A program made the position numbers and the translations under genes. DNA of 55,330 nucleotides from Candidatus Levyibacteriota bacterium (lineage in GTDB: Bacteria > Patescibacteriota > Microgenomatia > Levybacterales > UBA12049). Positions 21,083 through 23,385 of this stretch are shown here, piece by piece. The stretch covers positions 1 through 55,330 of the forward strand of contig JAYRIM010000012.1 in assembly GCA_041906785.1 (NCBI GenBank). The letters are read 5' to 3'. The stretch's first letter is position 1; each line of letters begins with the position of its first letter. Under the pieces are notes generated by a model, which saw only the letters and a list, made by a program, of their open reading frames with translations, had not been told where the DNA came from and ran no database searches.

Positions 21083-21178
21083 GAAAAGGGCCCAAGGAGA
21101 CCGAAGAGCCAAAAGGGCCAGATGTGGTTTTACCCCTTTGTCTCATTTGTCTCTTGTGGCTCATTGGGCCCCTTTATC
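21083..21178. repeat. Structured repeat, copy 2; overlaps the 3' end of valS
   Basis: It contains 'aagggcccaaggagaccgaagagccaaaagggcc ... cccctttgtctcatttgtctcttgtggctcattgggccc'. The outer gggccc...gggccc arms are complementary. It shares words with 18655-18745. The last ~16 codons of valS (LIKGPNEPQETNETKG) are encoded by it. Confidence 0.6.
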
Positions 21179-23385
21179 AGAGGCCAGGATTCTATCATAA
21201 TTGACTCTTTATGGTCTATAATTTTCTGATAGAGTTCTTCAGTGACAAACGGCATGAACGGATGTAATAATATTAAGGACATTTGGAGCAGATATTCCAG
21301 CGCTGGCTGTGCTTCCTCTCTTCTCTGTTTTGATTGCTCAATATAAATGTCCGCAAAGTCATGCCAAACGAAATTATATAGCTTCTCTGTAGCCAAATGC
21401 AGGTTAAATTGTTCAATGTCTTTTGTGACATCAGTAATTAATACCTGGAGTTTTGTTAGAATCTCTCGATCATTGTCATGCTGAGCAGCGCGAAGCATCT
21501 TTTCATAAGATTCTTCACTCCGTTCAGAATGACTAATCTCTAAACCTTCAGGCTTTAATTCTAAAACATATCGCGCTATATTGCGAAGTTTTGTACCAAA
21601 ATTACGGAAATTTTTACAACGCTCATCCATAGTTTGTCGTGATGCTTTTCCGTCTCTTCCAGGGGCTGAATAGGTATATAAAGCCATTCGTGTCGCATCT
21701 GTTCCCCATTGCTCACGAAGTACATTCGGATCTATACCATTCCCTAACGATTTTGAAAACTTTCGTCCTTGAAGGTCCCTAATCATGCCATGGAAAAACA
21801 TATTTGTAAAAGGAATGCTATCAGCAAAATACAGACCCAGCATTATCATACGAGCTATCCATAAGTATTTAATTTCAGGAGCTGAAATTTCAAAAGACCA
21901 TGGGTAATACCTTTCAAGCTCAATATTTTTTTCGGGTTTACCCCGCGAAGTCCCGCTCAGCGGGACGGAGTGGGGCCATCCGAGTGTTGCTAGCGGCCAC
22001 ATACCAGAAGAAAACCAAGTATCAAGTACTTGGTCATCTTGTACCCAATGATGTTCCCCGCAGGTTTGGCAAACATGGTGTGGCTTTTCAAGCGATACAA
22101 CCATATCTTTATCTTTACCCACAGCTTTTCCGGAATTGCATTTGTCGCAATACCACACTGGAATACGATGCCCCCACCAAAGCGAGCGGGAAATAGACCA
22201 ATCATGAATATGCTCTAACCACTCACGAATAATTGTTTCGTAGTTTTTAGGGATAAAGTTTATTTTTTTAAGATTAACTAACGCCTTCTCTGCTAAAGGT
22301 TGCATTTTTACAAACCACTCTTCAGAAATGAGTGGTTCAACAGTAGTTTTACATCGTTCACAGACAGGGACTGAATGGACATATGCTTCTTCTTTTTCAA
22401 GTAATCCTTGCTCACGAAGTAATGCTGCTGCTTTCTCTCTCGCCTCAGCGATTTTTAATCCTGCTAATTCTGGGTGCAAATCAGTAATTCTACCTTCTTT
22501 ATTAACCACATGGAGAATTGAAAGTCCATGAGTTTTTCCTATTTCGTAATCGAGAATATCATGTCCCGGAGTAATTTTTAACGCTCCTGTACCAAACTCT
22601 TTTTCAACACGTTCATCTTCAATGATAGGAATTTTAGTCTGCGTGAAAGGATTTATGGCAAACTTGCCAATAAACTTTTTATATTTTGGATGATTTTTAT
22701 ATATTGCGATTGCCACATCAGCGGCTATCGTTTCAGGCCTTGCTGTTGCAATAGTTATAAACTCTTGCGTATTTTCAATAGCATATCGTATATAAAAAAG
22801 CGTCTCTTTTCGCTCCTGATATTCCATTTCTACATCTTCAATCGCCGTTCCGCATTTTGGACACCACTGAACAATATAAGCGCCTTTATACAATAACCCT
22901 TCCTCCCAAAACTTTTTAAATTCAGCAAATACCGCCTCTTGCACTTTTTCTTCTAACGTAAAGACTTCATGTGACCAATCAGCAGAAACACCCATTACTG
23001 TCCAGGTATTATGAAATGACGTATACACCTCGTCTTTAAATTGCCAAGCACGCTTTAGCCATTCTTCTCTCCCCAATTTTTGTTTCGTTAAACCTTCTTT
23101 GGCAAGTTTTTTATTCAATGTTCCTTCAAATTGAATGCCTGCATGATCAACTCCTGGTAGAAGGAGAACGTCATACCCTTGGAGTCTTTTAAAACGAGCA
23201 ATCGCATCAAGAATAGCATGTTGCATCGCATGGCCAAGATGCAATTCTCCAGTTAAATTCGGCGGAGGCATAAGAAGAGAGTATGGCTTTTTATCAGAAA
23301 GTGGATCTGCCTTAAAGTACCCCTTTTCTTCCCATCTTTTATATGTTTCAGCTTCACTCACTGTATTAATAGAATTCTTATCCAT
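21130..23385 (-). CDS. valS: Valine--tRNA ligase (short form lacking the long C-terminal coiled coil; carries in-frame palindromic inserts)
   Basis: 'PPPNLTGELHLGHA' (HIGH), 'WSISRSLWWGHRIPVWYC', 'DTWFSSGMWP' and 'KFSKSLGN' (KMSKS). Confidence 0.9.
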   Translation of the reverse strand: MDKNSINTVSEAETYKRWEEKGYFKADPLSDKKPYSLLMPPPNLTGELHLGHAMQHAILDAIARFKRLQGYDVLLLPGVDHAGIQFEGTLNKKLAKEGLTKQKLGREEWLKRAWQFKDEVYTSFHNTWTVMGVSADWSHEVFTLEEKVQEAVFAEFKKFWEEGLLYKGAYIVQWCPKCGTAIEDVEMEYQERKETLFYIRYAIENTQEFITIATARPETIAADVAIAIYKNHPKYKKFIGKFAINPFTQTKIPIIEDERVEKEFGTGALKITPGHDILDYEIGKTHGLSILHVVNKEGRITDLHPELAGLKIAEAREKAAALLREQGLLEKEEAYVHSVPVCERCKTTVEPLISEEWFVKMQPLAEKALVNLKKINFIPKNYETIIREWLEHIHDWSISRSLWWGHRIPVWYCDKCNSGKAVGKDKDMVVSLEKPHHVCQTCGEHHWVQDDQVLDTWFSSGMWPLATLGWPHSVPLSGTSRGKPEKNIELERYYPWSFEISAPEIKYLWIARMIMLGLYFADSIPFTNMFFHGMIRDLQGRKFSKSLGNGIDPNVLREQWGTDATRMALYTYSAPGRDGKASRQTMDERCKNFRNFGTKLRNIARYVLELKPEGLEISHSERSEESYEKMLRAAQHDNDREILTKLQVLITDVTKDIEQFNLHLATEKLYNFVWHDFADIYIEQSKQRREEAQPALEYLLQMSLILLHPFMPFVTEELYQKIIDHKESIMIESWPLIKGPNEPQETNETKG
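21475..21533. repeat. 59-nt imperfect palindrome in frame inside valS
   Basis: The arms are gtcatGctgaGcAgCgCgaagCatctt (21475-21501) and aagattcttcactccgttcagaatgac (21507-21533), which is the reverse complement of gtcatTctgaAcGgAgTgaagAatctt. It encodes 'SHSERSEESYEKMLRAAQHD'. Confidence 0.65.
21941..21975. repeat. 35-nt G+C-rich palindrome in frame inside valS
   Basis: The structure is ccccgc-gaa-gtcccgc-tca-gcgggac-gga-gtgggg. It encodes 'HSVPLSGTSRGKP' exactly where my recalled E. coli ValRS sequence has no residues (after 'TLGWP'). Confidence 0.65.

Follow-up and report, generated by a model that had tools for sequence, protein, structure and literature searches.

The survey of CGTC-tagged repetitive extragenic palindromes (REPs) by Di Nocera (2013; PMC3733652) describes a superfamily whose tag is often TGTC, whose stems start with A-T and T-A pairs, and whose members occur mostly as head-outward (HH) dimers, often heterodimers, with no dedicated transposase assigned there; Neisseria dRS3 and Rickettsia RPE-4 and RPE-6 are included, and intragenic copies are noted, tRNA synthetase genes among them. 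In Neisseria the 94-aa GIY-YIG nuclease SsnA binds the NTS repeat (CGTCATTCCCGCG..GCGGGAATC) in single-stranded DNA and cuts just upstream of it; the three bases ahead of the palindrome and the C after it are the most critical, and ssn genes are typically flanked by their repeats (Chenal 2025, PMC11893778). Here we describe two palindromic elements, Element 1 and Element 2, that lie in frame within the valyl-tRNA synthetase (ValRS) gene, valS, of an ultra-small, Daviesbacteria-like member of the Patescibacteria, on a contig of 55,330 nt (JAYRIM010000012.1, assembly GCA_041906785.1) that is referred to as the window. For such an arrangement there is a precedent in Rickettsia, where the palindromic RPE-1 repeats, said to have been described by Ogata et al. 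in Science in 2000, reportedly occupy many housekeeping genes as in-frame, translated inserts located at the surface of the proteins; they are also summarised in PMC3733652 and PMC10969869.

Both elements very probably belong to the CGTC/TGTC-tagged REP class of selfish repeats, which are small and form hairpins, with an Ssn-type GIY-YIG nuclease as putative partner; this class is the same as that of Neisseria NTS and dRS3, the 'Ssn-related motifs' (SRM) and Rickettsia RPE-4 and RPE-6. Each unit has a 5' head (T/C)GTC and a stem starting from AT, which is interrupted by a purine bubble and encloses a short inner hairpin of variable sequence; the palindrome is followed by a C that does not vary, and the units are paired as head-outward heterodimers. 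The selfish hairpin-repeat class itself is known already, as is in-frame read-through of the Rickettsia kind; new here are a G.A-bubble stem variant that is missed by the published pattern, a Patescibacteria host with a bracketed Ssn-like gene, a high intragenic share, and two recurrent insertion hot spots in ValRS.

Two hairpin elements within valS

The window is contig C12 of a 29-contig, 1.43-Mb genome (G000; C with a number denotes its contigs, and other G and L labels denote other genomes and sequences of relatives) that has a G+C content of 36% and is rated 97% complete. valS (21130..23385, minus strand) is a 751-aa open reading frame (ORF) and the sole valyl-tRNA synthetase gene of the genome, the remaining class I matches being IleRS and LeuRS; its product matches the Thermus thermophilus ValRS (1GAX) with an E-value of 4e-173, and its homologues are labelled Candidatus Daviesbacteria (Microgenomates, Patescibacteria). 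The AlphaFold2 model of the protein has a mean predicted local distance difference test score (pLDDT) of 86 and a predicted template modelling score (pTM) of 0.83. An Rfam scan of 21300-22100 at E <= 10 returned chance matches only (snoZ118, the GRIK4 3'UTR and U6).

Element 1 (21474..21534) is a 61-nt head-outward doublet, a heterodimer of two different 26-nt hairpin units, and corresponds to ValRS residues 619-638. The left unit (TGTCATGCTGAGCAGCGCGAAGCATC; 21474..21499, plus strand) reads TGTCAT-G-CTGA-GCAGCGC-GAAG-C-ATC and the right unit (AGTCATTCTGAACGGAGTGAAGAATC; 21509..21534, minus strand) AGTCAT-T-CTGA-ACGGAGT-GAAG-A-ATC; each has 0 mismatches to the family pattern described below, and a 9-nt spacer (TTTTCATAA; 21500..21508) lies between them, the TT/AA ends of which prolong the central stem. 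The N/N' pair of the pattern is G:C in the left unit, complementary inside the unit, and T:A in the right unit, the head of which is AGTC and not TGTC; the left unit carries its purine (G.A/A.G) bubble on the plus strand. Element 1 folds as single-stranded RNA at -23 to -26 kcal/mol, with z-scores of -4.4 to -4.9 against shuffled controls, and the folding z-scores as DNA are -2.3 and -3.8. It codes for SHSERSEESYEKMLRAAQHD, directly ahead of NDREIL, and in the AlphaFold model this peptide is placed between two helices (583-609 and 637-658) of the anticodon-binding domain with a pLDDT of 63-65, falling below 50 at residues 620-624. The native loop at this site ends in a helix cap, (S/T)HP(D/E)D, which is mimicked by the end of the element, CAG CAT GAC (Q H D), and a sister ValRS sequence also starts its loop here with AGTCAT.

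Element 2 is a clean 13-codon insertion of 39 nt (21937..21975) that consists of TTTA and a 35-nt two-step hairpin (21941..21975, plus strand), CCCCGC-GAA-GTCCCGC-TCA-GCGGGAC-GGA-GTGGGG, with an outer stem CCCCGC/GTGGGG, a purine bubble GAA/GGA, an inner stem GTCCCGC/GCGGGAC and the loop TCA; GGG is present at both ends, and the edge is ambiguous by up to 3 nt. It provides ValRS residues 472-484 and translates as HSVPLSGTSRGK(P), right after TLGWP. Codon alignment with three same-genus orthologues places exactly 39 extra nt between TGG (Trp) and CCN (Pro). Its z-scores for folding range from -3.1 to -4.7 when treated as RNA and from -2.3 to -3.3 when treated as DNA, and the element folds better on the plus strand, antisense to valS, which is also the strand of the purine bubble. 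Segment 473-484 has a pLDDT below 50 in the AlphaFold model.

The original prediction, made from the sequence alone, of two palindromic elements in frame within valS is confirmed by the sequence, the reading frame and the folding z-scores against shuffled controls. It had placed the Element 1 peptide just before the DREIL motif, where it is indeed found, and had regarded the Element 2 peptide after TLGWP as extra residues, in keeping with its absence from all 29 relatives aligned and with a 13-residue gap in T. thermophilus ValRS. The statement that both elements are far richer in G+C than the host gene is correct for Element 2 (0.70-0.73 against about 0.38 for valS) and has to be withdrawn for Element 1, which at 0.45-0.50 is slightly above it. 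The proposed insertion into surface loops is consistent with the AlphaFold model, in which both inserts occupy low-confidence surface segments and are most simply read as surface loops.

The repeat family and its putative nuclease partner

The Element 1 units belong to a dispersed family of the form (T/A)GTCAT-N-CTGA-[mini-hairpin]-GAAG-N'-ATC. The pattern GTCATNCTGANCNGNGNGAAGNATC has 13 matches in the genome at <= 2 mismatches against 0 for the reversed pattern, the gapped unit pattern has 42 against 0 for its reversed control, and a published-style regular expression gives 52 as compared with 2 in the reversed genome; in 45 of the 52, N and N' are complementary. When the middle is allowed to vary there are 45 tagged units, every one of which (45/45) reads (A/C/T)GTCAT ... 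AT-C, with the C directly after the palindrome. Within a unit ATNCT pairs with AGN'AT, N and N' being complementary in 44 of the 45, and next in the stem comes a tandem G.A/A.G bubble. The inner mini-hairpin measures 7 to 21 nt and varies in sequence, yet its closing pairs are conserved in 44/45 and 43/45 units. Three-base inner loops are G-N-A in 16 of 18 cases and resemble the very stable GCGNAGC DNA mini-hairpin (PMC13037366).

The units are arranged in about 20 doublets that face head-outward (TGTCAT...ATGACA) and are 58-101 nt long (20 by a strict count of tagged units), and single units occur as well. The two units of one doublet never share N or the inner hairpin (0/20; P about 1e-4 if independent), and the covariation inside units supports the folding of each unit on itself; a nearest-neighbour energy model instead favours a long inter-unit hairpin. 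A different arrangement is seen in another Patescibacteria genome (G058:C6:6239-6417), where four same-orientation units with an exact 51-nt period, GTCATCCTGAGC(C/G)AAGCCGAAGGATC, form a tandem array and not a doublet.

Eight of about 21 doublets lie in open frame inside long ORFs. These are in genes for RecG (C8:33427-33500), a CopA-type ATPase (C10), ValRS (C12, Element 1), a YjeF-like protein (C18), a sortase-like protein (C21), and RecO, GlyRS and a Mur ligase (all on C28), and they translate as VILSxxEES...DPSPxAQDD or CH(P/S)ERSE...Q(N/H)D; in every unit TGA closes one phase out of three, and no intragenic copy uses that phase. The peptides are missing from the CopA, sortase-like, RecO, GlyRS and Mur ligase proteins of four same-genus genomes (5 of the 7 other intragenic copies), and at the RecG and YjeF-like loops there is other sequence in every same-genus relative. 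The RecG loop may be a third hot spot in addition to those of ValRS; in same-genus L184 (G003 recG) this loop is occupied by another doublet of the class, which reads HPELVSGS...MLKQVQHD. Like the coding palindromes of Rickettsia, these copies are in frame in several conserved genes, absent from close orthologues, and associated with low-pLDDT loops. The valS copies are probably transcribed and translated, as 20 and 13 extra residues that ValRS would tolerate.

Element 2 is probably a single unit of a related sub-family that shares the stem-bubble-hairpin plan, with a G+C-rich outer stem and no TGTCAT head. Its core, GAAGTCCCGC-NNN-GCGGGACGRA, has 14 occurrences in five related genomes against 0 in the control. 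The core is accompanied by similar G+C-rich outer stems in L167, L169, L174 and L175, while in L171-L173 and L265 TGTCAT units contain it as their inner hairpin, the L265 unit flanking a GIY-YIG gene. The near-identical copy in L167, which is from another genus, sits in frame within a membrane protein of 540 aa and gives HFVPLSGTSRGK.

The exact 26-nt pattern is present in at least 120 genome records and, among the matches listed, in more than 15 phyla, including Nitrospirota, Chloroflexota, Acidobacteriota, Bacteroidota, Firmicutes, Planctomycetota, Verrucomicrobiota, Alphaproteobacteria, Saccharibacteria and others; the Bacteroidota matches include isolates of Hymenobacter and Mucilaginibacter. 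This breadth fits the occurrence of 'SERSEES'-like peptides in many metagenomic annotations that was mentioned with the original prediction. In the host phylum the exact pattern is found in 54 of 201 sampled genomes and the reversed pattern in 0. Full-text literature searches with the strings SERSEES, VILSEAK, LKQVQHD and GTCATTCTGAGCG found nothing relevant, and a search for literature on in-frame palindromes specific to the candidate phyla radiation (CPR) found none.

The genome has eight small single-domain GIY-YIG genes, one of which (G000:C28:172852-173139) codes for a 95-aa Ssn-like protein (PF01541, E 7e-15) and has a doublet on either side (172777-172845 and 173117-173215). Its ATG falls within the ATGACA that ends the upstream doublet, and its TGA within the TGTCATTCTGA head of the downstream one. 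We compared 80 genomes of the phylum, 35 motif-rich and 45 motif-free, and counted matches with E <= 1e-20 as close homologues; these are present in 24/35 motif-rich and 7/45 motif-free genomes (Fisher P 2e-6), and in all seven richest genomes, which have no Y1 transposase. At the best 30 homologue loci, units lie within 250 nt on both sides in 10 and on one side in 4 more. TGTCAT units also flank GIY-YIG genes in related genera (L260, L263-L265), and the L254 GIY-YIG gene is flanked by NTS-like TGTCATTCCCGCGAAAGCGGGAATCCAG. The head of NTS and SRM repeats (HGTC, a stem of A/T then Y, and C after the palindrome) is seen in both Element 1 units and not in Element 2, and a small GIY-YIG gene flanked by repeats, together with its co-occurrence with them, is likewise as in the Ssn system.

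The seven further GIY-YIG paralogues (C29:640, C14:19740, C21:86801, C26:30626, C23:130993, C28:263233 and C26:19879) have 30-44% mutual identity and GC-rich hairpins in their flanks, and six of them adjoin tRNA genes. At C21:86801 there is a duplicated tRNA 3' end, which suggests tiny elements integrated at tRNA genes.

Recurrent inserts in two ValRS loops and their origin

We surveyed 112 ValRS orthologues (60-77% identical) for inserts of at least 5 residues. Inserts are present after residue 470 in 28 sequences and after about residue 619 in 37 (57 when loops of at least 30 residues are counted), and every other internal site has at most 9, leaving two hot spots only, one after TLGW and one before the (S/T)HPDD helix cap. 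Inserts at the first site include xSAKAxxGKP, FDFAQDKP, ASRGEP and tandem arrays, and those at the second SHPEFISGS..ILKQVQND, VILNEVKE..LRSAQND, IASS..PRNDVIASEAKQS and RHSGEDQNP..APQND. Five orthologues were inspected at the DNA level: there are hairpin repeats at both sites in L176, L177, L179 and L180 and at the second site only in L178, and the first-site repeats are bordered by TGG CCC ... TAAA CC. When the insert history was mapped on a FastTree phylogeny of ValRS with the loop columns taken out, presence and absence required a minimum of 21 changes at one site and 30 at the other, where shuffled labels gave 27 and 38, and are almost random on the tree; the sister sequence P0003 is without either insert. 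The valS genes L179 and L180 (from GCA_039738235 and GCA_039738315) have 92% DNA identity and different elements at both sites, and as the pair consists of blocks that alternate in identity, some at 100% and others at roughly 85%, a mosaic which suggests recent recombination between Daviesbacteria lineages, recombination may have brought in their differing elements. The hot spots may be due to selection for tolerated sites or to a targeting of places where a unit, or something like it, is already present.

The loop homologous to 21475-21560 has a different occupant in other Microgenomates families (L013, L014, L018, L020 and L026), namely in-frame 7-nt tandem repeats, x3 or x5, the unit of which differs per genome (GATTTAC, TCACAGT, TCGAAAT, AAATCCG and TC(T/G)CAAA are among the examples). 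In L021 this loop holds a GC mini-hairpin between direct repeats.

The valS copies came to lie, by insertion or by renewal, in two surface loops and in a stop-free phase. If the inserts are Ssn-associated REP-class repeats, the working form of the repeat would be single-stranded DNA, and the units would serve as recognition hairpins of the small Ssn-type GIY-YIG nucleases; a further role of the nuclease in spreading or renewing the repeats is a guess. A bolder proposal, which we offer tentatively and hold to be rather doubtful, is that in Daviesbacteria-like bacteria Ssn-type hairpin repeats act as fast-turnover coding cassettes, targeted to or renewed at sites that hold or resemble a repeat. 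The inserts at both loops come from many repeat sub-families, and the element's end (Q-H/N/D-D) is like the native cap; on this proposal they would be exchanged at existing repeat-like sites, and a cut by the Ssn nuclease in the hairpin extruded from single-stranded DNA would start the exchange. Were this true, the CGTC/SRM class would gain its missing way of spreading, and essential enzymes of gene-dense genomes would keep gaining and swapping surface peptides.

Several observations weigh against an origin of both inserts from Ssn-associated repeats. Mobilisation by Ssn is a guess, as this nuclease is not known to join DNA, and neither target-site duplications nor a conserved target or conserved flanks were found at the 20 doublets examined. 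A close Ssn-like homologue is missing from 11 of the 35 motif-rich genomes and present in 7 of the 45 motif-free ones. The published SRM string, HGTCWYN(0-2)YYVSBRHN(0-5)WNVSBRGN(0-2)RNCYNB, matches 0/45 units and has 1 genome match against 2 reversed, and neither Element 1 unit nor Element 2 fits it; the mismatch arises because the G.A bubble takes the S position, and the Element 1 family is accordingly placed as a stem variant of the SRM class. At the Element 1 site distant orthologues have native sequence to which part of the right unit (CAGCATGAC AATGAT) can be aligned, and the net gain relative to the nearest relatives is 13 codons, not 20; given also the native-like ends, the event in this lineage was a replacement or renewal of part of the native loop and not a simple 20-codon insertion. 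The full 35-nt Element 2 is single-copy in this genome, looser GC hairpins elsewhere in it are all intergenic, and the element has no TGTCAT head; a tblastn search of the eight GIY-YIG proteins against loci with Element 2-type copies gave one partial match only and hence no direct GIY-YIG neighbour link, so the tie of Element 2 to Ssn is indirect, through the shared inner hairpin. The lineage-specific insertion and the genomic dispersal that the original prediction implied thus apply in unequal measure: the first is clean for Element 2 and partial for Element 1, and the second is seen for Element 1, with its doublets and eight intragenic copies, and not for Element 2, the kin of which are in related genera.

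Movement of the units as REP or REPIN elements by a RAYT (REP-associated tyrosine transposase, a Y1 HUH enzyme), as in E. coli and Pseudomonas, is suggested by the doublet architecture, which resembles REPINs and BIMEs, and by a RAYT-like gene in this genome (C21:25860-26524; PF01797 38.9 bits; NF047646 55 bits, under the cut-off of 80), and there is a weak association of PF01797 with the motif across the phylum (18/35 versus 12/45 genomes, P 0.036). However, this gene is flanked by an unrelated inverted repeat, GTACACA..TGTGTAC, and not by TGTCAT units, the head is (T/C)GTC and not GTAG, and Y1_Tnp is absent from the richest genomes, G098 (62 units), G229 (59), G101 (47), G171 (30), G191 (29), G053 (27) and G039 (24), several of which are single-contig and 96-100% complete. 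Tag, flanks and phylum distribution therefore rule against a RAYT system, which we consider very unlikely. [quoted passage not shown] The TGTCAT...ATGACA ends look like such repeats and the sizes of 58-101 nt are short, but target-site duplications are found at 0/20 doublets, no longer element with TGTCATNCTGA ends carrying a transposase was seen, each half is a self-folding hairpin with internal covariation, the halves are never alike, single units occur, and the same unit is present in the many phyla among the matches listed. The original description of the elements as MITE/REP-like is accordingly retained for its REP part, specified as the CGTC/TGTC-tagged class, and dropped for its MITE part, as transposase-type terminal repeats and target duplications are missing.

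The remaining explanations do without a mobile repeat or place its value with the host. That the inserts are kept as a host benefit, whether through hairpins in the mRNA by which valS expression, or the pausing of ribosomes between domains, is adjusted, or through new loops of use to ValRS, draws on the stability of the predicted mRNA hairpins (-26.5 and -23 kcal/mol) and on the recurrence of inserts at the same two loops in 31 and 57 of the 112 orthologues; yet these inserts vary in sequence, length and family, their presence is nearly unrelated to the ValRS tree, the sister sequence has neither, and the peptides are predicted to be disordered or of low confidence. A mild host effect is possible, and we regard a benefit as the reason for their retention as unlikely. 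The assembly is in 29 contigs, and template switching can perfect quasi-palindromes, so the palindromes might have arisen in place, by template switching or hairpin-driven duplication, or be artefacts of metagenome-bin assembly. We give this next to no credence, as both arms fit the genome-wide and pan-bacterial consensus at each fixed position, the reading frame is intact, and independent orthologue assemblies have the same insert class at the same sites, with a DNA-level check in L176-L180.

Hammerhead, K-turn and other ribozyme readings of CUGA...GAAG were rejected by reasoning, the core being without the needed bases and bulge. The region of the RAYT-like gene (G000:C21:25790-26585) codes for a 222-aa protein and adjoins a tRNA gene, and its own inverted repeat has two or three further copies; the gene is unrelated to the TGTCAT family and resembles a 'TIRYT' as presented by Di Nocera 2013 (PMC3733652).

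Comparison with described systems

Attribution of the inserts to Ssn-associated repeats would tie the 'SERSEES / VILSEAK / MLKQVQHD' peptides of metagenome protein predictions to a defined repeat class and a candidate partner enzyme, and would extend the Ssn/SRM system to Patescibacteria, in a very gene-dense genome where over a third of the repeats lie inside essential genes as predicted translated loops. For annotation, such inserts should be taken as real and not trimmed, and they should be masked in CPR marker-protein alignments and trees. The ValRS hot spots are a natural experiment on the tolerance of an aminoacyl-tRNA synthetase for foreign peptides, and a place to test Ssn-driven spread.

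The likeness to Rickettsia RPE-1 is in the in-frame, read-through palindromes, their surface location, and a small-genome host with a symbiotic lifestyle; RPE-1 is said to be 100-150 bp long and of unrelated sequence, whereas the units here are 26 nt and the doublets 58-101 nt. With the REP/BIME/REPIN elements the repeats share an imperfect hairpin with a 5' tetranucleotide tag and an internal mismatch, a GCGNAGC-type mini-hairpin, inverted doublets, and a recognition thought to take place in single-stranded DNA; they differ in the tag, which is GTAG there and TGTC here, and in the partner, which there is a Y1 HUH transposase (Nunvar 2010, PMC2817692).

With the CGTC-tagged REP superfamily (Di Nocera 2013, PMC3733652) the repeats share the tag, the A-T/T-A start of the stem, a short loop, HH heterodimers, the want of a dedicated or flanking transposase, and intragenic copies that include tRNA synthetase genes. 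The tail agrees only partly, being CTT/CCC (CYY) here and CCA there, and the units described here have a mismatched purine bubble in the stem and inner hairpins of 7 to 21 nt.

The resemblance extends to the NTS/SRM-Ssn system (PMC11893778) in the (C/T)GTC head, the palindrome starting with AT, the invariant C after it and the directionality of the unit, and also in a single GIY-YIG gene of about 95 aa with repeats on both sides and a strong link between repeat and gene across genomes. The NTS stem is G+C-rich, whereas the units here have a tandem G.A/A.G bubble and a variable inner mini-hairpin; the host is a member of the Patescibacteria with eight putative nuclease paralogues. The share of repeats within genes also differs, with 8 of about 21 doublets here as compared to 2% of NTS in N. 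meningitidis.

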